A stretch of DNA of 27,431 bases, taken from IMG/VR virus record IMGVR_UViG_3300036823_000215, positions 1 to 27,431 of that record; one strand, given 5' to 3'. The notes beneath the pieces are model-generated. The model saw nothing but the letters and a program-made list of their open reading frames with translations, did not search any database and was not told the DNA's origin. Below are positions 128-27,306 of the stretch, in pieces. The first letter of the stretch is position 1; every line of letters begins with the position of its first letter. Origin of the DNA: a virus (taxonomy: Duplodnaviria > Caudoviricetes). Both the position numbers and the translations under genes were made by a program.

Positions 128-132
128 TCCGG

Positions 133-669
133 CTGTGTAGGAAGCATCGCGCTACGCTGGTCATTGCCAAGCTGGATCGCTTGGCTCGCAACGTTCACTT
201 CATCTCTGGCCTGATGGAGTCCAGCGTTGATTTCGTGGCCGTCGATATGCCCCAGGCGAATCGGTTTGTGGTTCACATCATGGCGGCCGTTGCCGAGCAG
301 GAAGCCGAAGCTATTTCGAAACGCACAAAAGCTGCGCTGGCTGCAGCAAAGGTTCGCGGTCAGCAGCTCGGCGGCCGGCGTGTGTCTGCAGAGCGGTTTG
401 CGGCGATCGGCGCTGCCGCGCGGCAGGTGCTCGTGGATAGGACTCAGAAAGCTCGCGCTGAGATCCTGCCGGCGATCGCGAAGCTGCAGGCCTCCGGCGC
501 TGTGAGCTTGCGCCAGATCGCAGCTGGCCTCAATGCTGCTGAGATCTCAACGCCTCGCGGGCGCGGTGAATGGTCGGCCGTCCAGGTGCAGCGAGTGATG
601 ATCGCCGCCAGAGTCCGAAAGCTGCCGTTCGGCGTGACGGCGGCGATCGCGAAAGCGACGGTCGCATAG
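133..669 (+). pseudogene. C-terminal part of IS-interrupted serine resolvase
   Basis: LCRKHRATLVIAKLDRLARN...EQEAEAISKRTKAALAAAK is a serine recombinase core. It is highly similar to 10827-11534 and continues in frame from 27112-27306. Confidence 0.92.
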
Positions 670-884
670 CTGGCCTTCTGAGGACGCATCAGATTCTCGA
701 CATTTTGTACAGTTGCTGCCGCGCAATCAGGGCGACTGCGCGCTCCGGCGTTTCCAGCGCAGGAAACCCTGCTGAAGGGTGCAGCGGCGCGTCCTAGGGC
801 ATCCTGGCGCGCTGTTTTCCCTCGTTTAAGCGCCTCGAGAAGGCAGCAGCGGTAAAGCGGCCCACCGCGCGTCGGCGTTGAGGT

Positions 885-1238
885 TTAGGCCGCTGCTGTC
901 CGAGACCGGCTGCGGCGTTTCTTTGCCGGCCTCTCGGCTCCGAGGCTTTCAATTACGAAATCGCCATCGGGGAAGATGACCCGGACCTCGAGCTGGCCAC
1001 CGAGCGCACCAACGTATTCCCGTAGCGTGCTAAGCAAAAAATCAGATTGCTTCTCGATCCGGGAAACGGATCCCTGGCCGACGCGCAGCTTTGCAGCTAC
1101 GGCGATCTGGGTTTTCTGTCGGGCGCGGCGAAGCTTATCGAAGCCGATGCGCTGTAGCTCGGCGTGAGCCTCACGCTGTAGCTGGACTCTGACAGCGGAG
1201 GAAGCCTTGTGCTTTAGATCGTTCCACTTTGTGGGCAT
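885..1238 (-). CDS. XRE-family HTH antitoxin (HigA-like)
   Basis: LRRARQKTQIAVAAKLRVGQGSVSRIEKQSDFLLSTLREYVGALGGQL is an XRE HTH; it lies directly downstream of the toxin gene. Confidence 0.88.
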   Translation of the reverse strand: MPTKWNDLKHKASSAVRVQLQREAHAELQRIGFDKLRRARQKTQIAVAAKLRVGQGSVSRIEKQSDFLLSTLREYVGALGGQLEVRVIFPDGDFVIESLGAERPAKKRRSRSRTAAA

Positions 1239-1274
1239 TGCGGGTGCACTCCATTGCGTTGCTAACCCCGGAAA

Positions 1275-1658
1275 TCACCGGGGGCGCTTCTTTTTGTTTG
1301 CCCTCTGCTGCTCTTCCTGGAGGGCCTTCAGGTGCTCTTTGTAGATGGCGTCGGCTTTCGGCACCATCTTTTCGTACCAGCGATCGTCGCCTGTCTTGTC
1401 GCCGCCCAGAATCAGCAATGCTGATCGGGCGGGATTGAAGGCGTATAGGACACGGTATGGCCGGCCTTCGTGCTGAATCCTCAACTCACGCATGTGACTG
1501 AACGTCGATTGCTGGATGCCGCTGCTGTACGGAAATCCGAGCGCGGGCCCGGCCTCCTCCAGCATCAACACCACACGCTCGATGCTGAGTTGTTCGGCCT
1601 CGGAAAGGGGCTCGTACCAATCCCTGAACTCGTCCGAGACCTCAACCTCATATGGCAT
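1275..1658 (-). CDS. RelE/ParE-family type II toxin (HigB-like)
   Basis: GPALGFPYS...MRELRIQHEGRPYRVLYAFNPARSALLILGGDKTGDDRWY; toxin-before-antitoxin gene order as in higBA. Confidence 0.9.
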   Translation of the reverse strand: MPYEVEVSDEFRDWYEPLSEAEQLSIERVVLMLEEAGPALGFPYSSGIQQSTFSHMRELRIQHEGRPYRVLYAFNPARSALLILGGDKTGDDRWYEKMVPKADAIYKEHLKALQEEQQRANKKKRPR

Positions 1659-1685
1659 AGATGCAATATATCATCAATGCGATAC
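1659..1685 (-). promoter_or_regulatory. Extended -10 promoter for a probably leaderless toxin-antitoxin mRNA
   Basis: Minus strand reads TGaTATATT-gcatct-ATG with no Shine-Dalgarno; an imperfect palindrome TATCGCATTGATGATA overlaps it. Confidence 0.5.
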
Positions 1686-1736
1686 AGGGAGCCGGATTTC
1701 GCTTTGGAGTCGGGTCGCTGCGAATCAGTAGGGCAT

Positions 1737-3491
1737 TCATGGGTGACGCTTTGCTGCCCGTTCGTCCAGCCAGGATTCCATCATGCAAACTCCGCTGGAT
1801 TCGTTGAACAGGCTGCCGTAGGTCTTGATCACCTGATTCGGGTTTGCGTGCCACAGGAGCTTGGACAGTCCCATATAGTCCTTCGGGTGATCCTTCAACC
1901 AAGCGACGGAGACCACATCCCTGAACGGGTGCGGAGTCACTCGGCGACCTCCAAAGGTGAGTGTGTTTGCAGAAACGACTTGGGTAACCTGATTCAGGCT
2001 CATTGGATTGCCAGCCTGGTTCAGGAAGAGTGTCCCCGGATCGTCACCGACTACGAGGTCCTGCCGGAATTCGTCCAGATATTCCTCCAGTGGCCCGATC
2101 AACTGGTGCGGCAGCAGTGCGTGCACCTCGCAGCCGGTCTTCGTCTCGTCTTCGTTGAAGTAGAACTGCCAGAAGTCGGCGTTCGGATCCTTCTGGCGCT
2201 CCTCGATGGCCCAAGCAGGCATATCAATGGTCGTAATCGCTGGTACCCGTCCCTTGTACAGATTTGGGTGAGAGCCGCCAGACAAGCGGCACTCTCGAAT
2301 ATTCCGCTGGCGCCACGGGAGAATACTGAGCCATCGAATCAGCAGTTCGACCATGGCAAGGCGGGCGACGTCTTTGCTTCCCTTCTTCGCCGCCTTTGTC
2401 CGCTGCGCCCTGACCATGTCTGGAATTGCTTCGATCACTGAATAGTCGAGAACCTTTTCGGCCCTGCGCCTCTTCAACACTGAGTCCGGCTCAACCGGCA
2501 GGCCGTCCAGGAGCGACTTGAACCAGTCCAGCTTTAGGTCTTTGTAGCGCGGATGCTGATGCAGTGCGGCGTTAAACAGGCGCAAGTTGCGCTGCAGCGT
2601 TTGGCCTTTAACGGCTCGACGGCTGTGGCACCACTGACAGAAGCCACCGATAAGGTGCGGCTGAGCCATCTGCGATAGCGAGCCGATTCCGACGTCTCCC
2701 AGCACGTTGACGTAGTAGCCGTACAGGGCGCAGAGAACCTGTTCCAGCCTTTTTGCGGTCACCGCCCTGATGCGCGCACCCTTGGGCCGGTCCCAGACAT
2801 AATCGTCCTGCTTCCACTTCAGAAGGTCGAGCACTTCCTGCTTCAAGCCGGCAGGAAACTTTTCGACGGGAATACCGTAGTTTTCTTCGCGCAAGATGCA
2901 TGGCGGGAGCTTTTTCGCGAAGCCGCAATCCCGGACAATGCGCCAAAACGATTTCCTCCTGCTGAGTGCCGTCCCGTACGCGAGACGCTGCTTGGCCATC
3001 TCATGAACCCAGCAATCTACGTCCTCGAACGTGACATCCCGTGGACTCTTCCTGATCGAGGCGAGGCTGCGAGCCAAGTCCCCGCAGTGCTGTTCATCTG
3101 CCAGTGCAATCACGCACCGCCAGTCCGTAGATGTTGTGTCGGAGAGTTCCCATCCGGCTTCGCGGGCGAGATTGAGCAGGATACGGACGTAGTTGACGTA
3201 TGTCCGGATGGAGTTCTCCTTGTTTTTCCTTCCCTCCAGAAACGCACGGAAGCTCTTCCGGCGCTGCTCCACCGCATCGATTGTCAAATCGTGAACTGTC
3301 GTGCCGTGATAGTCGGCCAGAAGGGCACACGTGTGCCGGAGCATTGACACCTGACGAGGCGGATTCTCTGACCAGATCGCCAGCAGGTCGGCGAGCGTCC
3401 TCGGCGCGATCGGTGAGCTGGCACTGTTTTCGGAAGAATCGCGAAGTTCGGCAGCAATTGCCGAACCATTCTGAACAAATGTGCATGTCAT
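1737..3491 (-). CDS. Large tyrosine recombinase/integrase-like protein (584 aa)
   Basis: C-terminal catalytic motifs PWRQRNI (R), ETKTG (K), TPHPFR (HxxR), LLWH and KTY. ATG at 3491 follows AAAGGAG, so the longer ORF-track start is unlikely. Confidence 0.8.
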   Translation of the reverse strand: MTCTFVQNGSAIAAELRDSSENSASSPIAPRTLADLLAIWSENPPRQVSMLRHTCALLADYHGTTVHDLTIDAVEQRRKSFRAFLEGRKNKENSIRTYVNYVRILLNLAREAGWELSDTTSTDWRCVIALADEQHCGDLARSLASIRKSPRDVTFEDVDCWVHEMAKQRLAYGTALSRRKSFWRIVRDCGFAKKLPPCILREENYGIPVEKFPAGLKQEVLDLLKWKQDDYVWDRPKGARIRAVTAKRLEQVLCALYGYYVNVLGDVGIGSLSQMAQPHLIGGFCQWCHSRRAVKGQTLQRNLRLFNAALHQHPRYKDLKLDWFKSLLDGLPVEPDSVLKRRRAEKVLDYSVIEAIPDMVRAQRTKAAKKGSKDVARLAMVELLIRWLSILPWRQRNIRECRLSGGSHPNLYKGRVPAITTIDMPAWAIEERQKDPNADFWQFYFNEDETKTGCEVHALLPHQLIGPLEEYLDEFRQDLVVGDDPGTLFLNQAGNPMSLNQVTQVVSANTLTFGGRRVTPHPFRDVVSVAWLKDHPKDYMGLSKLLWHANPNQVIKTYGSLFNESSGVCMMESWLDERAAKRHP

Positions 3492-3645
3492 ATCTGCATT
3501 TCTCCTTTGTTGCTCCAAATGGAGAGCGGCGAAGAAATGCAGATAAAACGCGAAGAGCGGGGAAGAGCCGCGAAGCCCGGCTCGCTTGCTTCGCGTGCAC
3601 GCAGATTGCGGCGATATAGCGAAGAGGTCGGAGGAATAACGAAGC

Positions 3646-3891
3646 TCATTTCCGGCCGCCCTTCTTACTCTCACGGAGAAACTGCTCAAGGTCTGCGGAC
3701 AGGAACTTCGCCCGTCCGGGCAAGTCCCGCGACGGCAACTGGCCGGAAGCGACCCGGGTCTGGATCGCGCGGACGCTCACGCCGAAAAGCGTGGCCACGT
3801 CCCGGATCGTGTACGTCGGCTGAAGGGACATCTGCCGCAGGGCCAAGACCCCCTCGAGTAAGGGGTGTTGTGGTGCATGGGGTGACGACAT
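3646..3891 (-). CDS. Excisionase-like HTH DNA-binding protein
   Basis: YTIRDVATLFGVSVRAIQTRVASGQLP...FLSADLEQFL matches the Xis/HTH_17 pattern; it sits upstream of the integrase. Confidence 0.8.
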   Translation of the reverse strand: MSSPHAPQHPLLEGVLALRQMSLQPTYTIRDVATLFGVSVRAIQTRVASGQLPSRDLPGRAKFLSADLEQFLRESKKGGRK

Positions 3892-4441: not shown

Positions 4442-4530
4442 TCCACGCATAAGTTGGTAGGCAGGAAAATCAGGGGTTTGAGGGTTTATCCACGCATAAG
4501 CTGGTAGGACGTCCACGCATAAGTTGGTAG
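4442..4530. repeat. Three 19-bp direct repeats (iterons), putative plasmid oriV
   Basis: TCCACGCATAAG(T/C)TGGTAG at 4442, 4489 and 4512. TTATCCACG (DnaA-box-like, 1 mismatch) overlaps the second copy. An AT-richer tract follows. Confidence 0.8.
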
Positions 4531-4869
4531 ACCTTTAACCGGTAGTTCTTTACCGTTAGGTTTTGTACGGATATCCGGTAGCCGGCTGGCAGATGCCAGC
4601 GGAAATTCCTCCCTCTCAAACCCCCGCCCCCCCCCCACGTAACGCATGGCTAGCGCCGCCATGGCCTCCGCTCGGGGGATGCTGCTAGCCGGGCAGCATT
4701 GGACGCATACTGGTCGGCTAGGTCATGGTGTTCGAGAATGTGGTCGATCAATTTTGAATCCTCCTCACCGGTAATCTGGCGAGTGGGGATCAAAACGGTG
4801 AAGTTTCCCTGCGAGGAGAACTTCACCGCCTATCCGAACCTAGCGGCGCGCGCCCGGGCAGGCGTGAGC

Positions 4870-5371: not shown

Positions 5372-5416
5372 TGGTTGCGGGGGGTGGATTTGAACCAGCG
5401 ACCTTTGGGTTATGAG
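5372..5416 (-). other. 3' half of tRNA-Met(CAT), attP/att-core-like fragment
   Basis: Minus strand CTCATAACCCAAAGGTCGCTGGTTCAAATCCACCCCCCGCAACCA contains an anticodon loop, T-loop and CCA end resembling initiator tRNA. The 5' half is absent. Confidence 0.88.
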
Positions 5417-6648: not shown

Positions 6649-7695
6649 TCACGCGTGAAGCTGCCGGCGAGGCGGTACCGGGGAGGGGCTGTAGCGGAGC
6701 TGGAGTGTGCCGGCGTGGTTGGTATTAACGTTGGCCTCGCGGTAGACGGCGAGCACTTTGGCTAGAGAGTCTTTGAAGTTCTGGCGGAACTTGTATGCGT
6801 CGTGGTACTCCGGCCCGAACTGGGCACGGATCGCGGCCCATGAGATTGGCACTGTTTTGTGCCGCGGGATCCGGCATAGGCGATGGGCCAGCCAGGTGTA
6901 GATATCGAGAGCCATGGCTGATTGTTGGAGCGCCCTGATCGCACGCGCGTCCAGCGGGAGAGCATTCTGTCCCATCAGGCTGTCGTAAAACTCGCTGCTG
7001 AGTGTCACTGTCGTCGGCCACAGCATTCGCTGGTTTGGGCTGCGGGGGAACCAGACGTCATAGCGGCTGATCGGGCTGGATGCGTTTACCATTGACACTC
7101 TGTCTTCATCGTCGAACAGCAGCTGCATCCGGGTTGCGGCCAGCCTGTTCATCTGATCCTTGAATCTGGCGATGCTGCCATTCTGACCGCCCGTGACTCC
7201 CAGCCCAAGATCGCGCATGAATGCGCTCATGCTGTCGGAGATCTCCACCTCCGGAGACTTATGCAGCTTCGATTCTGTGCAAAGGTGGATCATCAGCAGC
7301 CGTGGCTTTGCACCGTAAGGGATTCCCTGCAGGGTTGGTTTCCGTGTCTTTGGGTCGAGTAGTACTCCGGGCGTGAGGATGAGAGAAGCTCGGCCGTTCT
7401 TTTTCTCGTAGAAAGGAAGGCCGGTTTCAGGTTCGCGGTACGGCAGCCCGCATTGAGCCAGGACCACATGCAGATACCGGAGCTCGCGCGGATCGCCGCC
7501 GTAGATATCTTCCATGGCATCCAGCAGGCGATTCTGAGCGCGTGTGGGCGTCAGGGCCCGAATCTTGGGCGGCGGATCTGGGAAGCCAGGCAGAACGGTT
7601 TGCGCGTCATGGTGACGACTTCCCTGCTTCGGCAGTCGCGGAGAAATGAGCTCACCGAGCGGCTTGAGCCCATCGGACTGGCGCTTGCTCATCAT
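6649..7695 (-). CDS. repA: Plasmid replication initiator, RepA_C family (pBBR1/IncW-like)
   Basis: LAQCGLPYREP, GIPYGAKPRLLMIHL, SMSAFMRDLGLGVTGGQNG and MALDIYTWLAHRL are characteristic RepA_C motifs. Confidence 0.92.
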   Translation of the reverse strand: MMSKRQSDGLKPLGELISPRLPKQGSRHHDAQTVLPGFPDPPPKIRALTPTRAQNRLLDAMEDIYGGDPRELRYLHVVLAQCGLPYREPETGLPFYEKKNGRASLILTPGVLLDPKTRKPTLQGIPYGAKPRLLMIHLCTESKLHKSPEVEISDSMSAFMRDLGLGVTGGQNGSIARFKDQMNRLAATRMQLLFDDEDRVSMVNASSPISRYDVWFPRSPNQRMLWPTTVTLSSEFYDSLMGQNALPLDARAIRALQQSAMALDIYTWLAHRLCRIPRHKTVPISWAAIRAQFGPEYHDAYKFRQNFKDSLAKVLAVYREANVNTNHAGTLQLRYSPSPVPPRRQLHA

Positions 7696-7816: not shown

Positions 7817-8062
7817 TCATTCCATGCTCTCTACGCGGATTGCTGCGCTGGAAACGATGAAGGCACTGCGGCTGATGCCCAGGCGCTTCGCCGCGTGGTC
7901 GATCCGATCGAGCATCCTAGGGTCAACGCGAATCATGATTGGTTTTTTGTTTTGTTCTTCTTCCGGGTTCTCAACTGCGGACCCGGTTTTGGAAATGAAG
8001 GCTTGAGCCTGCTCTTCCCTTCCCTCTGCACGTTTGCGTTTGGGATTCTTTGCGATAGCCAT
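7817..8062 (-). CDS. Ribbon-helix-helix partition/regulator protein (ParG/CopG-like)
   Basis: KKPIMIRVDPRMLDRIDHAAKRLGISRSAFI is an RHH with a flexible N-tail; directly downstream of parA. Confidence 0.85.
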   Translation of the reverse strand: MAIAKNPKRKRAEGREEQAQAFISKTGSAVENPEEEQNKKPIMIRVDPRMLDRIDHAAKRLGISRSAFIVSSAAIRVESME

Positions 8063-8063
8063 G

Positions 8064-8720: not shown

Positions 8721-8781
8721 CGTTGCGCACCGCCTTCGCTCCAATTATTAAACGCCATCGCACCGATATACAAAAGAAAGT
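8720..8781 (-). repeat. 62-bp direct repeat copy 1 (promoter/leader of parA)
   Basis: Identical to 10691-10752 except one base. Minus strand shows TTGTAT-N17-TAATAAT followed by GGAG. Confidence 0.9.
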
Positions 8782-8814
8782 TTCAGGAGTGCCCTTTTGT
8801 GGAAGCTCGAAAGC

Positions 8815-16470: not shown

Positions 16471-19400
16471 ATGGGTACAACGCCATCGCCCGTCGCACCC
16501 GTCGCACAGCAGCCGGACCCTGTTGATTCCTATTACGCCGGGCTAGCGAGTCAGCAGCGCCAGATCGGCCAGAATCTGGCCGTTACCGCCGGGGATAACC
16601 CGGACGAGACGGGCGAGGCTCAGAGGCTTGCGCAGCGGTTTGGGGTCAGTCCTCAGCTCGTGCAAAGCAACCTGATGGATTTTCGTCGGCAAGCGAACGT
16701 GCAGGACGCGCTGGTCCATGTAGCCACGGGCAGTAGCCCGGTCTTGCGGCAGCAGCTGGAGGATCCGAATTTCGCGGCAATCGCTCACGATCAGATCGAT
16801 AACCTGAGCGCGACGGAGAAGCTCTTTAACACCATCGACAATGCGGGCCCTGACATAGCCAACCAGTACGAGGCGGGACACCTGCAGTATGAGCGCGGGG
16901 TGTTGGGCGACAAAGCTAAGGGAGGCGGCGCCACACCGGGCGATTGGAGTCGTATTCGGGAGATCGACCAGCGACTGCAGGAGCTTGGACCTCAGAGAAC
17001 GCTGCTCGGGGGCCTCTCGAATATGGCGGGAACGCTGGTTCCTCAAGGCTGGCATGTTGCCGGCGGCGCGGCAGTCGGCGGCGTGGTCGGGGGAGGGATC
17101 GGATTGTTGGGCGGCCCGTTTGCTGAGGTGTCAGTGCCGGGCGGTGCGATTGAGGGCGCGAAGGCCGGTGCCGAGATCATGATGGGCGAGCGAGCCTACA
17201 CGATGGCTGGAGGCAACGCTTATCTCGACATGCTCGATAAAGGGGTAAGCCACGATACGGCGAAGTGGGCGTCCGCCGGCGTGGGTCTCATTAATGCCGG
17301 CCTGCAGGTCGGGGGCGCCAAGCTTGTGGGTGACATGCCGGGCGTGACGGCTCTGAGTGCTGCTGCGCGCGACGCAATATCCAAGGCTGCCGGCGTGGAG
17401 ATTGCTGACGCCATGACTCAACCGACGGTGAATAGCGCTGTGAAGTCGGCGGTGGGGCGATTCCTGGCCTCGAGCGGTGAGGGCGGCGTGTTGATGGCTG
17501 GTCAGGAGCTGACCAACCAGGTGGCTCTCAACGCGGCCGAGCTGCACGATACGGGCAAGTTCGATCTTGAGACCGACGAGGGGCGGACTGCTGCCGGCCG
17601 CGCGCTGGGTCAGGCATTCGTAAATGGCGCGCTGACGATTGGTACCCTGCACGCGGCGACGGGCATGTTGGCTTTCGGAGCGGATATGGCGCGGGCGCGG
17701 GATGCGCAGCAGGCTCAGGAGTTCTTTACGGCCCTCCATGACAATGCGGCGGACAGTAAGGTGCGGGAGCGCAACCCCGCAAGCTACGAAGGCTATATCG
17801 CGGCACAGGCGCAGGGAACGCCGGCCGAGACCATTTACGTGGACGGTAAGCAGATGGCCAACGTGCTGGCGCAAAGCAGTCTGGATCCGGAGCGCGTCGA
17901 GCGAGTGATGCCAGGGCTAACCGCTCAGGTGAACGAAGCCGCGGCGACGGGCGGCGACGTGGAGATCCCCACCGAGCAATATGCGGCGCGCTTGGCGGGA
18001 ACCGATGTGGGCAAGGCGATGTTGCCGCACATGCGCATGGATCCAGACGCGATGAGCTCGCAGGAATCTGCCGAATACCTGAACGATGCGCAGGCGAAGT
18101 TTGACGAGGCGCGGAAGGCTGCTGGTCAGCAGATGGCCACGAACGTGGCCTTTGCGCAGAGTGCAAAAAACGTAGAGGACGATGTCTTTCGCCAGATCAG
18201 GGCGACAGAGACGATGCCGAACGACATGGCGCGAACCAATGCGCAGTTCGTGCGGGACTTCGTGGCGACGCAGGCTGAGCGCGCCAATATGACTCCGGAG
18301 GCTTTCTACGATCGGTACCGGTACACGATCCAGCGGGCGGCAGCAGGGCGGCCGGACGAACTGCTGAATCAGGGGCAAGTCGCGTCTCCCGAGTTTAAGC
18401 AGTGGTTTGGCGATTCGAAGGTGCTGGACGGTGAAGGCAATCCGCAGGTTGTCTACCACGGAACAGCGAAGAGTTTCGATCAGTTCGACCTCTCGAAAGC
18501 TGGAGCCGGCCGCGGCGCTGCAGGGGAAAAGGCGCTCTTCTTTAGCCGGAATCCAGAGACAGCAGATCATTCTGCTGCGGTCATGGGCGCCGGCGATGCC
18601 GGTGGCGCGCAGGTGCTGCCGGTCTATCTTCGCGTGGAAAATCCATTCATCTCAAAGATGAAGTATTACGACTCCGAGAAAATGGCGAAGGAGATCGCCA
18701 AGGCAAAGAAGCTGGGCCACGATGGAATCGAATTTCCGAATCTGAATACAAAAGGCGAGTCGGGAACGATCGCCGCGTTCTCGCCGGAGCAAGTTAAGTC
18801 GGCCATTGGGAACCGTGGCACCTTCGACGCGACGGACGCTAACATTTTGCATCAGGGCGAACCGGGTGAAGTGCCGGAAGGGATGACGCGCCTTTATCAC
18901 GGAAGCGCGACACCGGGAAGATACGAGGGGCCTGCATGGTTCTCCACGAACCGCAAGTACGCCGAGGACTATAGACCGGGCGCGGAGCTGCAGTACGTCG
19001 ACTACCCGACGTCTAAGCTCGAGGAGAAAGGCTGGGATCGCGAGAATCAGCCCACGTTCAACACCGAGCTTCACTCCAGCGAGACAGGTCCGCGTAGGCC
19101 AGTCCCCGGCGCCGGCGAGGGCTCCGGGAAAGCGCGCGGCGGTTTCGACCCTTCGACGTTGACGACCATGCTCGGCCAGAAAGCCGACATGAGCACCTTC
19201 CTGCATGAGACCTCGCATTACTTCCTGAGTGTCTACGGGGATCTGGCGCGACAGTCGGACGCGCCACCGGAAGTGAAGGCGGATATGGCGTCGCTGCTGA
19301 AGTGGTTCGGTGTGAAAGACCTCGACGCGTGGCACGGGATGAGCCTGGAGGAGCAGCGGCCATTCCATGAGCAGTTTGCCTACAACTTCGAGAAGTATCT

Positions 19401-22400
19401 GGCAGAGGGGAAAGCGCCAAGCGTGGAGACGGAAGGCGTGTTCCAGCGCTTTGCGCAGTGGCTGAAGCGCGTGTACGTCTCGATCCGCGACGAAGTCAAC
19501 ACGATTTACCGTCGCGAGCACGGCAAGGACTTGCCGCTGATGACCGGGGAAGTTCGCGAAGTCATGGATCGGATGCTGGCCTCGGAAGATGCGATACGCG
19601 AGCGTGAGGCGATCCAGAACATGGTTCCGATGTTCCGGACGGCCGAGGAAGCCGGCATGAATGGAGACGAGTGGGCAGCCTACCAGGCGATGCATCGCGA
19701 GGCAAGCGATCAGGCGGCAACCGAATTGAGTGCGGCGAGTATTCGGCAGATGCAATGGCTGCAGAACGCCCGCGGCCGCCTCATGCGGGAGATGCAGCGC
19801 CAACATGATGCGCTGCGGGACGTCGAGCGCGGCGAGGCGGCCGGGGAAGTTGCCGGCAGCGACCTTTACCGGGCGCAACGATTCTTGAAGGCGGGCGAAC
19901 TGCGCGGTGAGGACGGCGAGGATATTCAGGCGCTGGTAGGGCACAAGCTCGATTCCGACAGGGTGAAGGCGATGTTCCCGGAGAGCGCTCCCGGAGAGAA
20001 GCCAGATCTGGGCAAGCTCGGCAGCATGATGAAGAAAGGTGGTACGGATCCGGACCTGATTGCGCCGATGTTCGGCTTTGACAACGGCGAGCAGATGGTG
20101 AGGCAGATCGCCGACGCGCGCCCGATCGAGGAAGAGATCGATGCGCGCACAGACCAGCGAATGCTGGAGCGTTACGGCGATATGAACACGCCGGAGCAGC
20201 GTGAGGTGGCGATCCAGCGGGCGCTCCATAACGAGGCGAGGGCGCGGTTTGTGGGTGTCGAGCTGCGGGCGTTGGAGAAAACGACGCGCCCGGTTAGGGA
20301 CCTTCTGGCGGCGGCCAAGAGCGCAGCGCGGCAGATGCTGGCGGACAAGCCGATCGGGGATATTACCCCGCGTGACTACCAAGCGGCTGAGGCGCGGGCG
20401 GCGCGCGAGGCGATGGACGCGATGAAGCGTGGTGACAGCGCCGCGGCGGCGCAGGCGAAGCGGAGTCAGCTTTTGCAGAACGCGCTGGCACGAGAGGCTC
20501 AGCGTGTACGTGACAAGGCGGAAACGCAGCTCGCCTATCTGAGTAAATTTGCCGATCCCTCGAAATCGACAGCGAAGGCCGTGGGCGCTGATTTCATGGA
20601 CCGAATCAACGAGCTCGTGGCCGGATATCAGCTGGGCGCCAGAGACGTGCATGGGGATGATCCACGCCCGCTGAATGCCTGGGTGAATGATTACTACGAC
20701 AAAAACGGCGTCATGCCCTCGGTGAGTGATGAGGTAATGGCCAACCTCGGCCGCATGCACTGGAAGGACATGACGCCAACCCAGCTGGGGGATCTTCGCG
20801 ACGCCGTGAAGTCGCTCGATTACCTCGGCCGGCGCGAGCAGTCGGCGACCATGAGCGGCAAGCAGGTAGAGCTCGACGCGTTGCTGCAGGAGCTGAAGGC
20901 TCCTCTTGCGGAACTGCCGCACGACAAGAATCGCGACGTCCGCGCAGATCTGCAGCATGGCAGCGGCCTGACGAAGATGAGCGCGAAGTTTCTGGATCTG
21001 AAGAGTGGCATACGCTCTCTGGATGCCGTTCTGCTGAAGATGGAGCAGCTCTTCCAGTGGTGGGGCGCCGGCAAATACGCAGGCCTAAGAGAAGCGCCGA
21101 TCAACGGGGGATGGGCCCGCGTTTTTAAAATGGCTTCCGATGCTGAGGCGGCCGAAAGGGCGATGCGGGCGAAATCCGGCGCAGCGCTCAGGTCTATCGG
21201 GGAAGTGCTGCACGGCGCAAAGATCAATCTGGACGATTCCCTGGATGTACCGGAGATGCCACGTCCCGGAAGGGGCAACCAGTGGTATCGCGAGGAGTTG
21301 CTCAGCGCGGCGCTGAACATGGGCAACGCCAGCAATAAGGCCAAGATGCTGCAGTACTACAAGTGGCAGGAATACGAGGTTGTAAGTGCCATCAATCGGC
21401 TGCTCTCAAAACCGGAGATGGATTTCGTCCAGGGCGCGTGGGATCACGTTGGCAGCTACGGGCAGGACATCGAGAATCAGCAGCGCCGCTTAACCGGAGT
21501 AACGCCGAAGATGATCGAAGCGGCGCCGCTGCAAACCAAGTGGGGAACCTACCGCGGCGGCTACTATCCGATGGTCTATGACTCGTTTCTGGACCGCAAC
21601 ATCGAGCGAAAGAGCGAGCGTAACGCTGACCGGCTCTTCGAGAATAACTACGCGAAACCCTCAACGAACGACGGACACACGATCGAACGCACTGGCTACG
21701 TCGGGCCCGTCAGCTTCTCGCTGAATGTGATTGCGCGGCATCTGGATCAGGTTACGCATGATCTGGCATGGCGCGAGGCGATCGTCGACCTGAATAAGAT
21801 CCTGAGCGATCAGGGGCTGAAGGACGAGATTAACCAAACCTGGGGGCGGCAGTATACGAAGCAGTTGCGGCCGTGGCTGCAGGCAATGGCAAACAATCGA
21901 GTCTTTGACAGCACGATGGACTCGGCGTGGGAGGGCATCCTGCGACGTGTCCGCTCCAACGCGACGATGATGGGTGTCGGCTTCCGGGCGACGACGATCC
22001 TTACGCACGGCACGACCGCTCTTTCGAACTCGATGGGGGAACTGGGGCCGAAGTGGTTCATGAAGGGCGCGGAGCAGTTTATGGGCATCGATCGAGTGAA
22101 GGCGACGCGGGATTTCGTCTACGAGCGTAGCCCGGAGATGGCCCACCGCATGGATGAGGCGGACCGCAACCTGCACGAAGCGATCGACGAGATCAACCGC
22201 CATCAGGAGTCGTTCCGCTCGCCGACGGCCGCGACGCAGCTCTTCGACAAGGTGCGCAAGTTTGCGTATCGAGGCGTGATGATCAGCGATATGGCCAGCG
22301 CGCTTCCAACCTGGGTGGGAGCCTACCTTAAGGGCATGGCAAAGGAACCGGACGGCGGCCTGAACCTCTCCGAAGACGATGCGATCGACTACGCCAACCG

Positions 22401-23043
22401 TACGGTGCGCAACGCCCACGGCGGCGGCGGCGTGAAGGACCTCGCGCAGATCCAGCGGGATAAGGGGCCGCTGTCTCTGGCGACTCTGTTTTACAGCTAC
22501 TGGAACCACGTGTATCAGCGCGAACGTGACCTCGGCATGGGGTGGAAAAAGATGCTCACCGGCCAGGGAAGTGTGAGCGACATGCCGCGGTTACTGGCGC
22601 GGAGCTGGTTCTATTTCGTGCTCCCTCAGATCGCACACGCATTTTGGAGCACGCGGCAGGGCAGCGATGAGGACAACACGCTCGGCGGGTTTGCAAAAAG
22701 GACGGCCGAAGAGACAGCGTTGGGCATGGTTTCAGGGCTGCCTGTATTCCGTGACCTGGCGAGCTCTCTGGCGGAGGGCCGCGACTACAAGTTCACTCCG
22801 CTTGAAGACGCTGGACGGAGTTTCGTGACTACGACCAGCGACGCCTATCACCTGGCCGCTGGCGAGCCGGTGAGCAAGCATGCTCTGCAGACCGCGGCCA
22901 ACACGGCTGGATACGCCTTCGGGCTTCCGCTCTCGCAGCCCGCGTCGACGACGCGCTTCCTCTGGGACTACACGAATGGAGATGTTGATCCGCAGAGTCT
23001 GAAGGAGTGGTACGAGGGGGTCCTTACAGGCCATATCCATTGA
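16471..23043 (+). CDS. Large polyvalent phage protein (2190 aa) with ART-like domain(s) and HExxH metallopeptidase; probable DNA-ejection protein
   Basis: Gly-rich hydrophobic segment near the N-terminus; FKQWFGDSKVLD...VYHGT...FFS...PVYL..NP...HDGI...FSPEQVKSAIGNRGTFD (ART-PolyVal pattern); STFLHETSHYFL...HEQFA..FEKYL.EGKAPS (zincin); long helical C-terminus. Confidence 0.85.
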   Translation: MGTTPSPVAPVAQQPDPVDSYYAGLASQQRQIGQNLAVTAGDNPDETGEAQRLAQRFGVSPQLVQSNLMDFRRQANVQDALVHVATGSSPVLRQQLEDPNFAAIAHDQIDNLSATEKLFNTIDNAGPDIANQYEAGHLQYERGVLGDKAKGGGATPGDWSRIREIDQRLQELGPQRTLLGGLSNMAGTLVPQGWHVAGGAAVGGVVGGGIGLLGGPFAEVSVPGGAIEGAKAGAEIMMGERAYTMAGGNAYLDMLDKGVSHDTAKWASAGVGLINAGLQVGGAKLVGDMPGVTALSAAARDAISKAAGVEIADAMTQPTVNSAVKSAVGRFLASSGEGGVLMAGQELTNQVALNAAELHDTGKFDLETDEGRTAAGRALGQAFVNGALTIGTLHAATGMLAFGADMARARDAQQAQEFFTALHDNAADSKVRERNPASYEGYIAAQAQGTPAETIYVDGKQMANVLAQSSLDPERVERVMPGLTAQVNEAAATGGDVEIPTEQYAARLAGTDVGKAMLPHMRMDPDAMSSQESAEYLNDAQAKFDEARKAAGQQMATNVAFAQSAKNVEDDVFRQIRATETMPNDMARTNAQFVRDFVATQAERANMTPEAFYDRYRYTIQRAAAGRPDELLNQGQVASPEFKQWFGDSKVLDGEGNPQVVYHGTAKSFDQFDLSKAGAGRGAAGEKALFFSRNPETADHSAAVMGAGDAGGAQVLPVYLRVENPFISKMKYYDSEKMAKEIAKAKKLGHDGIEFPNLNTKGESGTIAAFSPEQVKSAIGNRGTFDATDANILHQGEPGEVPEGMTRLYHGSATPGRYEGPAWFSTNRKYAEDYRPGAELQYVDYPTSKLEEKGWDRENQPTFNTELHSSETGPRRPVPGAGEGSGKARGGFDPSTLTTMLGQKADMSTFLHETSHYFLSVYGDLARQSDAPPEVKADMASLLKWFGVKDLDAWHGMSLEEQRPFHEQFAYNFEKYLAEGKAPSVETEGVFQRFAQWLKRVYVSIRDEVNTIYRREHGKDLPLMTGEVREVMDRMLASEDAIREREAIQNMVPMFRTAEEAGMNGDEWAAYQAMHREASDQAATELSAASIRQMQWLQNARGRLMREMQRQHDALRDVERGEAAGEVAGSDLYRAQRFLKAGELRGEDGEDIQALVGHKLDSDRVKAMFPESAPGEKPDLGKLGSMMKKGGTDPDLIAPMFGFDNGEQMVRQIADARPIEEEIDARTDQRMLERYGDMNTPEQREVAIQRALHNEARARFVGVELRALEKTTRPVRDLLAAAKSAARQMLADKPIGDITPRDYQAAEARAAREAMDAMKRGDSAAAAQAKRSQLLQNALAREAQRVRDKAETQLAYLSKFADPSKSTAKAVGADFMDRINELVAGYQLGARDVHGDDPRPLNAWVNDYYDKNGVMPSVSDEVMANLGRMHWKDMTPTQLGDLRDAVKSLDYLGRREQSATMSGKQVELDALLQELKAPLAELPHDKNRDVRADLQHGSGLTKMSAKFLDLKSGIRSLDAVLLKMEQLFQWWGAGKYAGLREAPINGGWARVFKMASDAEAAERAMRAKSGAALRSIGEVLHGAKINLDDSLDVPEMPRPGRGNQWYREELLSAALNMGNASNKAKMLQYYKWQEYEVVSAINRLLSKPEMDFVQGAWDHVGSYGQDIENQQRRLTGVTPKMIEAAPLQTKWGTYRGGYYPMVYDSFLDRNIERKSERNADRLFENNYAKPSTNDGHTIERTGYVGPVSFSLNVIARHLDQVTHDLAWREAIVDLNKILSDQGLKDEINQTWGRQYTKQLRPWLQAMANNRVFDSTMDSAWEGILRRVRSNATMMGVGFRATTILTHGTTALSNSMGELGPKWFMKGAEQFMGIDRVKATRDFVYERSPEMAHRMDEADRNLHEAIDEINRHQESFRSPTAATQLFDKVRKFAYRGVMISDMASALPTWVGAYLKGMAKEPDGGLNLSEDDAIDYANRTVRNAHGGGGVKDLAQIQRDKGPLSLATLFYSYWNHVYQRERDLGMGWKKMLTGQGSVSDMPRLLARSWFYFVLPQIAHAFWSTRQGSDEDNTLGGFAKRTAEETALGMVSGLPVFRDLASSLAEGRDYKFTPLEDAGRSFVTTTSDAYHLAAGEPVSKHALQTAANTAGYAFGLPLSQPASTTRFLWDYTNGDVDPQSLKEWYEGVLTGHIH

Positions 23044-23147: not shown

Positions 23148-23417
23148 ATGAGAAGACCGGCGGGTGACCTGCGACGTGAGAGACGGGAGGCGTTGCTGCA
23201 GTACTTCGACAAGGTGTTTCGGGCGATTAGCTTATTGCCGCCCGATAAGAGGGCGGAGTTTGAGGAGTGGGATCAGAACCGAACGGATGGACGAGCCACA
23301 TCGGACTGGCCGGGGTTCGAAGCCCTCATTGGCTCTCGTCCGGGGTCTGTGTCGGACCGCCGAAGGGAAGCGAAAAGAGTATTGGAAATGAACTGCGGAG
23401 GGGCTAGAGAGCAATGA
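23148..23417 (+). CDS. Hypothetical protein
   Basis: Purine-rich RBS; ATGA overlap with the next gene. Confidence 0.65.
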   Translation: MRRPAGDLRRERREALLQYFDKVFRAISLLPPDKRAEFEEWDQNRTDGRATSDWPGFEALIGSRPGSVSDRRREAKRVLEMNCGGAREQ

Positions 23418-24328
23418 GCGTACGAGTAATGGCAGACGTGTGGGACAACGGGCCTGACGATGCAACGCTGACGACGGTCTTGTTGGTGCTGGCGAATTCG
23501 GCCGACGACAACGGCGGCAACTGTTTCCCCGGCAATGCGCTGATTGCACGCCGTACGCGCTTTTCGGAGCGCACCGTGATCCGGGCGGTTGTCGAGTTGG
23601 AGCGCCAAGGCTGGATCGCGGTGCTGCAGCGCCGTGGCGGTCGCCCCAAGCGTGGCGCCCGCCGGCACGAGCTGGCCGAGTATCACACCCAGTACAGGAT
23701 CAATGTGGCGAAGCTGAAAGGGTGTCAGGATGTCACTGTTTCGCCGGCGACCAGCGCGCCGGCAACCGAGGAAGCATGGCCTCCGAAAGGGTGTCAGGCT
23801 GTCACGGTTCCAGAGCGGAAAAGGGTGACACCGGTGCAGAAAAGCATGACAGTGACGCCCGAAAAGGGTGACAGTGACGACATTCCCCCACACCCCCTAT
23901 ATGGAGTATCCGTCACTGATCCGTCAGGTGAACCTAACCCCCTACCCCCTCCGCATGCGGAGGGGGAGAGCTACTTGAATTCCGAATTCTCATCGGGGAT
24001 CCGAGCAAAGGCAGGGCACGGCGAAGAGTCGACGGTCATCCGACGTGAAGCGGACCGGGTCTCCGAAGCTATTGGCTCAACAGCTGAAGGCACGAAGCGT
24101 GCGATTCGAAGACAGCTCGCCATGCGCGTCAAACCGCTCGAGGAGCAGGCGCTGATCGCTATGGCGGATCGCATGATCGCGGCACATCGCGTCTACGCCA
24201 GCTGGGGCGATCTGCTGCGGTTCGTATGGGGCCAGCGCCGGTTCTATGGCGAGGGGCACTGGGACAAACCAGAGCTGTGGCCGATTGATCAGGAGCGGCT
24301 GGCTCAGCAGAGGAGGGCAAGGCTATGA
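23414..24328 (+). CDS. Phage replication initiator (N-terminal wHTH)
   Basis: MSVRVMADVW...VLLVLANSADDNGGNCFPGNALIARRTRFSERTVIRAVVELERQGWI; a low-complexity middle encoded by DNA repeats. Confidence 0.85.
   Translation: MSVRVMADVWDNGPDDATLTTVLLVLANSADDNGGNCFPGNALIARRTRFSERTVIRAVVELERQGWIAVLQRRGGRPKRGARRHELAEYHTQYRINVAKLKGCQDVTVSPATSAPATEEAWPPKGCQAVTVPERKRVTPVQKSMTVTPEKGDSDDIPPHPLYGVSVTDPSGEPNPLPPPHAEGESYLNSEFSSGIRAKAGHGEESTVIRREADRVSEAIGSTAEGTKRAIRRQLAMRVKPLEEQALIAMADRMIAAHRVYASWGDLLRFVWGQRRFYGEGHWDKPELWPIDQERLAQQRRARL
23716..23878. repeat. Intragenic iterons, putative phage-type origin
   Basis: GAAAGGGTGTCAGG(A/C)TGTCAC at 23716 and 23785; GAAAAGGGTGACA at 23818 and 23861; GAAAAGCATGACAGTGAC at 23839. 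Confidence 0.75.
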
Positions 24329-24591
24329 GGTCCAAAAAGGTTGCTGGCCAGAGCGCGAGCAGCTCAGAGCGTTTTCCGCGATGCGACGGGGGGGCGAGCG
24401 GGATAGAGGTGCTACTCGCGCCGCCGGCGATCCTGACTTGCGCTGAACGCCGAAGAAGGGAAATTGAAGAGTTCTGGCGTTGGGCGCCTGAGTGGATGGA
24501 GGTGACAGGCGGTTCGGAGGACGAGTTGCTGAGGAGGTTTCCATCGTACAGAGGTACAAGGCCTAGCCGTCGAAATGCATCGGCGGCCTGA
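24325..24591 (+). CDS. Hypothetical protein
   Basis: ATGA overlap with the initiator stop; same operon. Confidence 0.5.
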   Translation: MRSKKVAGQSASSSERFPRCDGGASGIEVLLAPPAILTCAERRRREIEEFWRWAPEWMEVTGGSEDELLRRFPSYRGTRPSRRNASAA

Positions 24592-24617
24592 GACTCTGGG
24601 AGGAAGAGAGGAAACTT

Positions 24618-24890
24618 TTGAGCGACGTTAGCGACGTTCTCGTGAGCGACGATGAGCTGGGCGCGGCGCAGGTGGTAGCAATGCAGTTTGCCGGAGGCCG
24701 TTCGATTATGCGGTTGGCTGAAGAATGGGAGCGTGATGCAGCGTGGGTTGAGGAAGCGATACGGCGGGCACTGCGAGACACAATCCCGAAGCGAAATGGC
24801 GGAATGAAGGTTTCGCGAAGGGCGGCGAGCAGGGAGCGCAGTCTGCGAACGGCGTCGAGGCGAGAGGCGCAGGATTCACTCGAATGGTGA
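24618..24890 (+). CDS. Small HTH-like hypothetical protein
   Basis: FAGGRSIMRLAEEWERDAAWVEEAIRRAL; GAGG RBS before a TTG start. Confidence 0.55.
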   Translation: MSDVSDVLVSDDELGAAQVVAMQFAGGRSIMRLAEEWERDAAWVEEAIRRALRDTIPKRNGGMKVSRRAASRERSLRTASRREAQDSLEW

Positions 24891-24906: not shown

Positions 24907-25446
24907 GTGCTGACACCGAAACAGGCGATATTTATCGCGGAATACCTAGTTGACGGGAATGCTACGCGTGCAGCGATCGCCGCGGGCTATTCGGAGAAGA
25001 CTGCAGAGGCTGCGGGCTCCCGATTGTTGAGGAATGTTAAGGTCTCGCGCACGCTTGCGGAACGGAACGCGCGCCGCGTTGAGAAGCTGGATATTACGGC
25101 CGCTCGCACGCTCAGTGAGCTCGCGAAGCTTTCCTATTTCGACCCTGGGAGGCTGTTTGATGAGCTTGGAAAACTGGTACCGGTGCACAAGCTCGACGAG
25201 GTAACGCGGGCGGCCGTTGAATCGGTCGAGATCGATCCGGACACGGGTCGCATTAGAAAAATTGTGATGGCGAAGAAGGGGCAAAATCTGGAACGGCTGG
25301 GGCGGTACCAGAAGCTGTTTACGGACCGCATTGAGCATGATGGCAGGGTGACGCTGGAGCAGTTGGTATGCGGACTCGGCGACGCCGACGGCCGCGGCGA
25401 GGTGCTCGAGAATGTCGCTAGTGGGGCTAAGGAGCCAGAGGAGTAG
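24907..25446 (+). CDS. terS: Phage terminase small subunit
   Basis: LTPKQAIFIAEYLVDGNATRAAIAAGYSEKTAEAAGSRLLRNVKV is the classic Terminase_2 N-terminus; GGAGG RBS. Confidence 0.93.
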   Translation: MLTPKQAIFIAEYLVDGNATRAAIAAGYSEKTAEAAGSRLLRNVKVSRTLAERNARRVEKLDITAARTLSELAKLSYFDPGRLFDELGKLVPVHKLDEVTRAAVESVEIDPDTGRIRKIVMAKKGQNLERLGRYQKLFTDRIEHDGRVTLEQLVCGLGDADGRGEVLENVASGAKEPEE

Positions 25447-25533: not shown

Positions 25534-25616
25534 ATCGAATTCGAATCGCTTGTCAACGGGATGTTGATTTTCTTGCGCGGTGAACGAGCAGGGAGGTATT
25601 TTTCCCTTCGCGTGGC

Positions 25617-26939
25617 TTAGGCCCTTCCGATGCGTGGCCACTCTTCGTTTCGTTGTTGTAACAGGGCTTGGCCGTCGTCGCTCACCGGGGCTTGACGATT
25701 CCATCCTGCCGCCATTGCTTGTTCCTGCCACGTTGGGAGCGCTGGGGACGGCTGAGGCGGATGTTGTGGAGTCCAGCCCGCGATTATTGCCTGTTGGCGC
25801 CAATCTTGCGGCGACGGCGAACTTTCCCATGCTGTGGAGGCCCACCGACGCTTCGCCTCCATGGAAATCGCGGTGTAGTGCTGCTGCATCGTTGGACTGA
25901 TGTGGCCCGCAAAGCTCATGATCACCTGAATGGGGACGCCGGATTCCGCCATGCGTGTGATCGCCGTGTGGCGCAGATCGTACGGTCGCAGCCATGGAAC
26001 TTTCGCCGCGGTGCGAACCTGCTCCCATGGCTTGCGAAGGCCCCACGGGCTCATTGGACGCAGCACGTCGTACTTGTCGTGGTGTAGATGAAACGGGAAC
26101 AGGCAGCAGTGTGGGCCACCGGCGCCCAGCTGCCGGGCCCGCCGCATAAGATTTTCCAGCGCCCAAACAACCTCCGGCGTTTGCAAGGGGATCGTCCGGA
26201 TCCGGAACTTATTTTTCGCGCCGGCGCTTCGGATCTGGATTGTTCCTTGGTCAAGGAAGACGTCGCCGAGGCGCAGCATCCGCAGCTCGTTCGTCGAGGC
26301 CGTCGTCTGCAGTGCAACCAATGACCACCAGTACACCAGCTGCCATTCCGTCCGCGAGCCGGCGGCTTGCAGGAATCGATGCTGCTCTTCTGGATTCATC
26401 GCGCGCTGGATGTCATTCTGGACCGGCTGGAGGGGCTCGTAGACCTCCTCGTGGTGTAGTGTCCACGCGCCCGCGGCCCGCATCACCCGCATCACTGTCT
26501 GCACTTCCTTGCGGATCAGATTCGCGCTGGCGGCCCGCATCCAGCGGGTCTGCTGCAATATCCAGCCGCGCCCATGCTCGTCTGACCATTTCTCTGCCAG
26601 TTCCGGGGAGGCAAACGGCCCAACCGTGTCGCCGTTTCGCTCGAGGTAGAGATTGCCGTCGGCATCAGGAGGGTTGGTAGCGCGCAGCACATGATACCGA
26701 TGAAAATGGCTGGCGTTGATCTCCTCAAGACGAAAGCCTCCGAAGAAGAGCCCGGTCGCGCGGGCGTACTGGCGAAGGTCCTTTTCTGTGCGTGGCGAGA
26801 TGTAACGCGCATTCGTTCGGGCTCCCGCGGTGTGGATCACGCGGCGAGAGATCCACTCTTCGAAGGCGGCAGAAAATGTCAGCTGGGGAGAAAGTGTTGA
26901 ATTGGTCATCTGAGTGACGTTTGGGAATTGGCAAATCAC
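25617..26939 (-). CDS. Tyrosine integrase/recombinase with an atypical first catalytic motif
   Basis: AKNKFRIRTIPL, RPYDLRHTAITRMAESG and FAGHISPTMQQHY; GTG start after AAAGGAG. Confidence 0.9.
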   Translation of the reverse strand: MICQFPNVTQMTNSTLSPQLTFSAAFEEWISRRVIHTAGARTNARYISPRTEKDLRQYARATGLFFGGFRLEEINASHFHRYHVLRATNPPDADGNLYLERNGDTVGPFASPELAEKWSDEHGRGWILQQTRWMRAASANLIRKEVQTVMRVMRAAGAWTLHHEEVYEPLQPVQNDIQRAMNPEEQHRFLQAAGSRTEWQLVYWWSLVALQTTASTNELRMLRLGDVFLDQGTIQIRSAGAKNKFRIRTIPLQTPEVVWALENLMRRARQLGAGGPHCCLFPFHLHHDKYDVLRPMSPWGLRKPWEQVRTAAKVPWLRPYDLRHTAITRMAESGVPIQVIMSFAGHISPTMQQHYTAISMEAKRRWASTAWESSPSPQDWRQQAIIAGWTPQHPPQPSPALPTWQEQAMAAGWNRQAPVSDDGQALLQQRNEEWPRIGRA

Positions 26940-27009
26940 TGTGGATTCTCCTTTGGAGCGGGTTGAGTGTGATTCGTTTAATTATCGAAACGGAATCGTG
27001 TAGATATTA

Positions 27010-27029
27010 CACCGATATACAAAGGAAAG
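27010..27029 (-). repeat. Third, partial copy of the shared promoter element
   Basis: CACCGATATACAAAGGAAAG versus CACCGATATACAAAAGAAAG at 8761 and 10732. Confidence 0.8.
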
Positions 27030-27059
27030 CAAAATCGCTTGCTATCGCCAAGGCGTGGT

Positions 27060-27095
27060 GTTACGTTCTCTCTACGGACGTTGAAGGAATGTAAC
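27060..27095. promoter_or_regulatory. Inverted repeat, putative res/crossover site of resolvase 1
   Basis: GTTACGTTC...ACGTT...GAATGTAAC followed by GGAG, in the same position as 10774-10811. Confidence 0.55.
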
Positions 27096-27111
27096 GGAGA
27101 GGGAAAAAGCG

Positions 27112-27306
27112 ATGGCAGCTGGAAAGTTCGTGAGCTACCTGAGGGTGTCGACGGCGCAGCAGGGATCCAGCGGTTTAGGCCTGGAGGCGCAGCGCGCGGC
27201 GGTTGCTGGATACCTCAATGGCGGGGAGTGGATCCTCGTTGAAGAGGTATTGGAGGTTGAGAGTGGGAAGCGAAATGACCGGCCCGCTCTGGCTCGGGCT
27301 CTCCGG
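27112..27306 (+). pseudogene. N-terminal 65 codons of the IS-interrupted serine resolvase
   Basis: MAAGKFVSYLRVSTAQQGSSGLGLEAQRAAV...VESGKRNDRPALARALR; homology stops exactly at the IS end. Confidence 0.93.

Follow-up and report, generated by a model that had tools for sequence, protein, structure and literature searches.

What kind of element carries a plasmid replicon, a small terminase gene and two large proteins resembling those that phages eject with their DNA, while lacking any recognisable gene for a virion shell? The question is raised by virus record IMGVR_UViG_3300036823_000215, analysed over its full 27,431 bp and called the window. An earlier note on this DNA had described an apparently complete element that a helper podovirus could package. 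On balance, the window probably represents a circular, capsid-less satellite-plasmid packaged by a BPP-1-like temperate podophage of Acidobacteriaceae, which loads its own ejection pair into the helper heads. Two relatives are used throughout for comparison, A (L048, contig titled Acidobacteriaceae) and B (L049, contig titled Terracidiphilus).

The window is the whole database record, and both its ends fall within an insertion sequence (IS), presumably IS21-like. A 5-bp target duplication, TCCGG, is found at 128-132 and 27302-27306. The ends are organized as follows.

1..127, no strand assigned: insertion sequence right end and contig break, with TG...CA ends and internal repeats
128..669, plus strand: 3' part of serine resolvase 'res3', beginning with the TCCGG duplication
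27112..27306, plus strand: 5' part of resolvase 'res3', ending in the TCCGG duplication
27307..27431, no strand assigned: insertion sequence left end and contig break

When the IS ends are taken out, an open 243-aa serine resolvase is restored; relative A has this gene intact, at 85% identity. Read in this way, the record closes as a 27,174-bp circle interrupted by the IS at the resolvase, and the element is complete, as had been supposed.

The absence of virion genes was checked in 116 open reading frames (ORFs), 27 main and 89 further six-frame ones, compared with PHROGs. None matched capsid, portal, tail, tail-tube or holin families, and the endolysin and tape-measure family matches in the window all correspond to the M23 domain of a Bbp11-like protein. 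Six structural proteins of provirus G403 were also used as tblastn queries: none (0/6) matches the window, A or B at E<=1e-5, and the same queries match six phage records (TerL lies outside the G083 stretch compared). A PHROG labelled 'terminase large subunit' matches the ATPase at 8815-10734 (E 7.6e-10). This ATPase was considered as a hidden TerL and discarded, because HerA models match it, it is missing from both relatives, and the TerL of the nearest phage gives no match to it. The statement that TerL, portal, capsid and tail genes are missing therefore stands, and the profile search for overlooked structural genes adds none among the 116 ORFs.

The phage-related genes are co-oriented, from 12845 to terS. 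Families and domains were assigned with Pfam and PHROGs.

11543..12652, minus strand: 369-aa protein, divergent from the ejection operon, candidate regulator; it resembles CGNR zinc-finger clusters, a lead only
12845..13228, plus strand: small family-marker gene, with 15 relatives at 73-82%
13221..13544, plus strand: short ORF with a weak Bbp12-like (small ejection) remnant; the gene is intact in relative B
13588..15819, plus strand: Bbp11-like putative ejection protein, with an M23 domain replacing the transglycosylase; the M23 protein is also delimited as 13492-15819
15789..16391, plus strand: 200-aa ORF with weak winged helix-turn-helix/initiator similarity, not conserved
16471..23043, plus strand: 2190-aa Bbp10-like polyvalent putative ejection protein, with LPD22 and ART-PolyVal
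23414..24328, plus strand: phage O-like replication initiator, HTH_36; position kept and sequence swapped between members
24325..24890, plus strand: two small ORFs, the second of which also precedes terS in related prophages (62-74%)
24907..25446, plus strand: terS, Terminase_2/PF03592 (E 1.1e-31), absent from relative B

The large protein is 31.5% identical to BPP-1 Bbp10 (E 3e-137), and its LPD22 (E 1.1e-17) and ART-PolyVal (E 3.9e-22) domains place it among polyvalent proteins. It is made up of LPD22, a variable insert at about residues 623-888 and a conserved C-terminal portion of 1300 aa. The inserts found at this one site are non-homologous among members, being ART-PolyVal in the window, PF18809 in A and PF18812 in P0003 and also in B. 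No match to the large protein was found among solved structures, and none of a set of 72,556 plasmids matches more than 80% of it. The M23 protein aligns over its full length with BPP-1 Bbp11 (hhalign probability 98.3%, 608 columns). The plasmids and most related phages have another residue in place of the first histidine of its HxH motif; an inactivation specific to the plasmids was rejected, since phages G404, G406, L073 and L119 have the same change. HxxxD is also lost in several phage versions, and L075 has an unrelated domain there. The pre-ejectosome of cyanophage A4 ranked second among matches of the Bbp11-like model (E 9.1e-8), but was dropped as fold evidence because of a TM of 0.14 and an rmsd of 28.5, the match being driven by M23. 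The Bbp12-like remnant of the window is 31% identical to its counterpart (E 8e-4). The window TerS is 78% identical to that of A, and 62% identical both to that of fragment L161 and to that of the G347 prophage. A promoter scan of 12500-13650 gave counts inside the shuffle range.

In BPP-1 and in prophage G403, Bbp11/Bbp10-type genes follow a small 'internal virion protein' gene and are located between tail tubes and tail fibre. This is the place of ejection genes in short-tailed phages, according to the available text of two reports (PMC8954989; 10.64898/2026.02.16.706137). From homology and gene position we infer that the Bbp11/Bbp10-like pair are ejection proteins.

The marker at 12845 has its 15 relatives among 41 candidates, with no contig above 26,167 bp. 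The marker protein has no Atlas match; its model has a pLDDT of 60.7, and a best Z of 5.3 to an N-terminal piece of IscB. A homologue (46%) belongs to a chromosomal island that also carries an integrase, AlpA and an initiator; this hints at a satellite-type origin of the first gene of the operon. The island (G608:C1 ~663900-668400; L153:8073-12800) is PICI-like (PICI, phage-inducible chromosomal island), lies at the end of mnmE/trmE, and includes a fragmented integrase, AlpA, the marker homologue, a helix-turn-helix (HTH) gene and an initiator; it is followed by a long homopolymer stretch resembling a sequence artefact.

The window is not isolated. A scan of species-representative genomes gave nine loci, two of which, A and B, match the large protein over its full length at 83-84%. 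Both are contigs of Acidobacteriaceae metagenome-assembled genomes (MAGs), and feature the layout of the window at 75-85% identity. A is taken as a closed circle of 26,026 bp because of an exact 141-bp terminal overlap; B measures 30,316 bp and is not closed. Both keep repA, the ribbon-helix-helix (RHH) gene, parA, the iterons, both resolvases, the toxin-antitoxin genes, the 12845 marker, the Bbp11/Bbp10-like pair and an initiator behind the pair. Two fragments fit the family: L115 (87% to the large protein) continues with a resolvase and an initiator, and L161 carries an initiator, terS (62%), res3 and toxin-antitoxin genes, with no integrase between terS and res3. Closed circles free of shell genes have thus been found in two independent assemblies, in addition to the third near-complete member and the two fragments. 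The pair is present in 3/3 near-complete members. The small Bbp12-like gene is intact in 1/3, namely B (64% to G403; 42% to Bbp12, E 2e-22), and is a remnant in the window and A. terS is found in the window, A and L161, hence in 2/3 near-complete members. No relaxase or conjugation genes were found in the window and A. Other capsid-less elements with ejection genes, which the earlier note had proposed to look for, do exist in A and B; its association of terS with them is not universal. The family is conserved, and apparently undescribed in print.

Further searches extended the family little. RepA matched in 30/401 genus genomes at E<=1e-30, of which only B exceeds 70%, all others being at <=41%; the marker was found in A only among 401 order-level genomes. 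Pattern matches in viral_contigs were not confirmed for the C-terminal part (0/2), the Bbp11-like protein (0/6) or the marker (0/7), and gave no new members. In L149 (7,498 bp) and L147 (10,349 bp), a related RepA (51-59%) is accompanied by a TerS-like gene and a resolvase of similar type, with no ejection genes; they are candidate minimal satellite-plasmids, and L149, in which repA is split across the ends, may be a circle. In relative A, a 305-aa ORF (L067:11967-12884) with a signal-peptide-like start includes a duplicated piece of the Bbp11-like N-terminus.

Pairwise Nei-Gojobori counts gave approximate dN/dS ratios of 0.08-0.12 for the large gene (dS 0.9-1.2), 0.24 and 0.12 for the Bbp11-like gene, 0.17 for terS (dS 0.91) and 0.07-0.08 for parA (dS 0.9-1.0). 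Ratios and dS being similar, module and backbone have diverged to similar depth under similar constraint; the large gene, constrained like parA at dS ~1, is not a decaying prophage gene. The decay allowed for in the earlier note is not seen: the genes are under purifying selection, and homologues occur in other capsid-less plasmid-like elements. In a FastTree tree of 31 of at least 120 homologues (row L071, which has an in-frame stop, was left out of alignment A4), the four closest large proteins group in a single clade (support 1.0, long stem), nested among phage proteins. The N-terminal half of the Bbp11-like protein of A is 49% identical to G403, versus 38% to the window, and the C-terminal third is family-specific (68-84% within the family, <=33% to phages). 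The swapped inserts and the phage-like N-terminus in A suggest continuing exchange with co-resident phages.

The likely host family offers candidate helpers. The large protein is matched in four of 401 genomes of this family: A, prophages G083 and G347, and one weak match (G330, E 7.4e-4). G083 and G347 are complete same-clade prophages with head and tail genes, found in 2/401 Acidobacteriaceae genomes. The nearest phage large protein is that of provirus G403 (65%). The earlier note had proposed to look for a cognate podovirus prophage in the host; complete same-clade ones exist in the likely host family, and none was found in the two carrier MAGs. The change of host range also suggested there is not supported, as the element carries no tail-fibre gene.

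Starting from what is read directly, namely gene content, circle, family and purifying selection on the pair, we infer the later steps as follows. RepA, ParA and the toxin-antitoxin pair would hold the plasmid in the cell. Helper infection or induction would turn on the co-oriented operon, and the O-like initiator would amplify plasmid DNA into concatemers. TerS would recruit the helper TerL, and helper heads would be filled with about 1.5 plasmid copies; for members without terS, the helper TerS or conjugative mobilisation would have to serve. The helper heads would also receive the Bbp11/Bbp10-like pair, together with the small Bbp12-like protein of the helper where that of the plasmid is lost. 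Once in the next cell, the pair would assemble into a channel for the DNA and bring in the ART or nuclease-like insert. The plasmid may gain by entering cells that exclude the helper's own channel, and by spoiling helper particles with a mismatched mix. Phage P22 offers analogues of the plasmid pair, homology not being assumed. In the available text on P22 (PMC10883804), foreign ejection proteins are packaged and functional, gp7 is exchangeable alone, gp16 and gp20 function only when matched to each other, mismatch leading to non-infectious particles, and HK620 ejection proteins partly escape SieA exclusion. Retention of the two large proteins in 3/3 members, and of the small one in 1/3, is what the P22 rule predicts for use inside helper heads, and for this reason the satellite-plasmid is favoured.

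Several points weigh against this reading. B lacks terS, and features instead a TrwC relaxase, a coupling-protein fragment and ArdC-N. No phage more than 65% identical in the large protein was found, no portal or tail-tube homologues were found in the MAGs carrying A and B, both incomplete, and neither a pac site nor a Sie gene was recognised. The likely assignment to Acidobacteriaceae rests on MAG binning. The dN/dS ratios are approximate, dS near 1 being close to saturation. Wall-cutting by the M23 domain is uncertain, the first HxH histidine being replaced, as in several complete phages.

The comparison with known systems refers to the available text of the papers cited. The combination had been thought to be new to satellites. 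The exact combination was not found in the literature, nor was any plasmid satellite with ejection proteins, most subscription papers being outside the scope of the search. In contrast, satellite-plasmids (PMC13230959) and a PICI with related features (PMC11773190) are in print, and because of these, the Vibrio PISP elements and EcCIMP1, the family is not a new category. The PISP/cf-PISP elements of Vibrio crassostreae are likewise circular, with repA, parA and a terminase gene and without tail genes, and have been proposed, rather than shown by experiment, to be packaged with helper-phage parts (PMC13230959). They measure 11-16 kb and encode capsid E and protease or a full head module, whereas the window family measures 26-30 kb, has no capsid gene, head protease or head module, and has putative ejection proteins with a variable effector domain. 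EcCIMP1, a PICI of E. coli MP1 with the podovirus Kapi1 as helper, is also capsid-less and carries DNA-transfer-protein-like genes (PMC11773190). Its excision and transfer have been shown, and these genes, which resemble those of the helper, are proposed by the authors to act in packaging. Unlike the window, EcCIMP1 is chromosomal, has an AlpA/primase backbone and no identifiable terminase, and neither a polyvalent protein nor a plasmid replicon is described in that text.

PICI/SaPI satellites, as defined in SatelliteFinder (PMC10085698), share with the window a lone terS, an integrase-type gene, a replication gene and the lack of tail and holin genes. The integrase is the tyrosine recombinase at 25617-26939, the recombinase type varying among members. 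The replication genes are the O-like initiator and RepA_C, with no primase match in Pfam or PHROGs. As to regulators, there is a weak MerR match of a window-specific HTH_17 gene, and the conserved divergent 369-aa gene has no family match. Unlike PICIs, the window is in a plasmid state, has no capsid-morphogenesis gene, and no conserved AlpA, Stl or MerR was found. Chromosomal integration is not seen: neither the window, which closes through its target duplication, nor A, which closes through its terminal overlap, is flanked by host DNA. Bbp10 and Bbp11 homologues, which are phage structural genes, are present; PICIs typically do not encode such virion-internal proteins. As in phage-plasmids, replicon and partition genes are found, but the element has no head, portal, TerL or tail of its own (0/6 queries in the window, A and B). 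On the sequence features compared, the element falls outside PICI, PISP and phage-plasmid. BPP-1-like (Rauchvirus) phages and G403 share with the family Bbp10, Bbp11 and, in B, Bbp12 homologues in the same order, as well as related terS and integrase; the intact Bbp12-like gene upstream is missing in the window and A. In contrast to these phages, the family has a plasmid replicon, another gene order, and no TerL, portal, scaffold, capsid, tail tubes, fibre or lysis genes. Polyvalent proteins with LPD22 and ART or PBECR-type domains are predicted to be packaged and injected (PMC5512222). Unlike the cases described there, in a text from which the word 'satellite' is absent, that of the window is found on an element without virion shell and, in 2/3 members, without conjugation genes. 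VEIMEs with ParA/RepA (PMC9618062) are capsid-less, include one plasmid-like subgroup and some small terminases, and have been found inside phage particles. They differ because they are marine and seen as concatemers in virions, and the main text does not contain 'internal virion' or 'core protein'.

Among the other explanations, the one surviving best, though unlikely, is that the pair serves in anti-phage interference only: loaded into the heads of an infecting BPP-1-like phage, it would render them toxic or unable to infect, and the plasmid, seldom packaged itself, would spread by conjugative mobilisation. The non-infectious P22 particles with mismatched gp16/gp20 would fit (PMC10883804, available text), as would the presence of the pair in 3/3 members and of terS in 2/3, the relaxase of B, and the family-specific C-terminal third of the Bbp11-like protein. 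A poison, however, needs neither a matched full-length pair of ~2900 residues at dN/dS ~0.1 nor the intact third protein of B. In addition, terS and the O-like initiator are kept in the window, A and L161, and the window and A have no relaxase.

It is improbable that the element is a degenerate phage-plasmid or a captured prophage piece, the relic of a BPP-1-like ancestor that lost its head and tail genes. One prophage clade has the nearest relatives of the integrase, the ejection genes, terS and the gene preceding it; the small ejection gene is decayed in 2/3 members and terS lost in 1/3, and the window has an IS in one resolvase and the remnant of another. Against this, three lineages that differ by about 20% in DNA have all kept a 6.4-6.6-kb frame open, and its dN/dS resembles that of parA, its synonymous divergence that of the backbone. 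The gene order is not a contiguous phage slice either, the large gene being followed by the tail fibre in G403, L073, L116, L119 and L124 and by the initiator in the plasmids. Present-day decay is thus largely refuted by dN/dS; as an account of origin, reduction is compatible with the satellite-plasmid, and the rise of satellites from phages by reduction is a stated model in the available text of PMC11389934.

A divided phage genome would consist of the plasmid and a mutually dependent partner, a replicon or defective prophage giving head, portal, TerL and tail but no ejection genes. The initiator, terS and ejection modules of the plasmid would complement such a head-tail block. This is about as improbable, as the two carrier MAGs (incomplete) gave no homologue of the portal or of tube B, and the phage records with head genes carry ejection genes of their own (6/6 examined).

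Co-option of the pair for a virion-independent job, as a membrane channel or for effector export in conjugation or cell contact, is very improbable. Polyvalent proteins are also known on conjugative elements (PMC5512222, available text), and B has TrwC and ArdC-N. But the window and A lack conjugation genes, the pair shares an operon with a phage initiator and terS, and the plasmid set gave no (0) extended match to the large protein. Last, an assembly or binning artefact, the contig being chimeric or partial, can be virtually set aside: the contig break falls at a multicopy IS, and the target duplication is compatible with a cointegrate in which two IS copies bracket further DNA, but an independent assembly of soil run X1, which may be the source of the record, covers 7500-27334 in three contig pieces with zero differences and flat depth (17.5-19.3 on the two long pieces, ~88-90 at the IS end), and A has the same layout and an exact terminal overlap. 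Near-identical pieces of the window, at low depth, are found in three runs from other soil studies.

The satellite-plasmid favoured here has a backbone in which all the parts listed in the earlier note (repA, parA, RHH, iterons, integrases, initiator, terS, M23 and polyvalent proteins) are confirmed. Two serine resolvases and a higBA-type pair, common to all three near-complete members, had been overlooked. The remaining features are the following.

885..1658, minus strand: Gp49/HigB-like toxin and HTH antitoxin pair, in 3/3 near-complete members
1737..3891, minus strand: 650-aa tyrosine recombinase (1737-3689) and HTH_17 excisionase-like gene, window only
4442..4531, no strand assigned: three iteron-like repeats (4442/4489/4512), likely oriV, kept in relatives A and B
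5372..5416, minus strand: attP-like tRNA 3' half, window only
6649..7695, minus strand: RepA_C plasmid initiator (E 4.5e-23)
7817..8744, minus strand: parA (8064-8744) and its ribbon-helix-helix partner (within 7817-8218)
8720..10752, minus strand: HerA-like ATPase cassette between two 62-bp direct repeats, window only
10827..11534, plus strand: serine resolvase 'res1'
25617..26939, minus strand: tyrosine recombinase, 45-50% to integrases of related prophages

The tRNA fragment, which we take to be the 3' half of a tRNA-Met, matches a 45-nt site beside the integrase region of phage G406 (91%) and of the G347 prophage (80%). ARAGORN found no whole tRNA in the window, and Rfam gave three matches, all under the gathering score. 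The attP-like fragment and two integrases are present as described earlier, but the fragment, the 650-aa recombinase and xis are specific to the window rather than traits of the family.

Copies of the ~62-bp repeat are found in the window (8720-8781, 10691-10752), in G001:C274 (23187-23246, 24837-24895, 25951-26012) and in G002:C110 (~5330-5400). The repeat corresponds to the parA upstream region, with a core also preceding res3. Cargo cassettes flanked by it, between parA and res1, number none in B, one in the window and two in A, and look like a resolvase-site cassette array. In run X3 one low-depth contig joins 10689 to 8720, like an excised circle or tandem, and is maybe an assembly-graph artefact. 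Another join in one contig of the same run, between the region before res3 (27095) and the start of res1 (10827), is weak, with 37 letters on the short side; such a join would result if the 16.3-kb module that separates the two resolvases were excised. The remnant of a third resolvase 3' end is found at 4175-4330 (88-94% to 546-610 over short stretches).

Tyrosine recombinases are located at 25617-26939 in the window and at L136:1-1290, L069:5412-7963 and L066:7586-8812; B has both subtypes in tandem. All five aligned, prophage integrase included, have TTAS/A..EL at the expected place of what is presumably the first catalytic Arg motif. The idea that this altered first Arg motif leaves the 440-aa recombinase inactive is unsupported, since the integrase of the G403 prophage shares the motif.

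The satellites described so far act by redirecting packaging, by making heads smaller or by using borrowed tails. More tentatively than the satellite-plasmid itself, the family may represent a satellite class hijacking entry, in which the heads of a helper podophage are refitted with the satellite's own matched channel and a swappable enzyme, entering lysogens that exclude the helper and crippling helper particles. About 9 of 27 kb are spent on the putative injection channel; if this is true, DNA entry joins the targets of piracy, and the P22 hybrid result, with foreign pairs packaged, working and able to escape exclusion, would be a natural strategy. The plasmid family would offer a natural series in which the enzyme insert changes on one injected scaffold. 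It would also provide a candidate plasmid-satellite-phage system in Acidobacteriaceae, which abound in soil and of whose viruses little is known.

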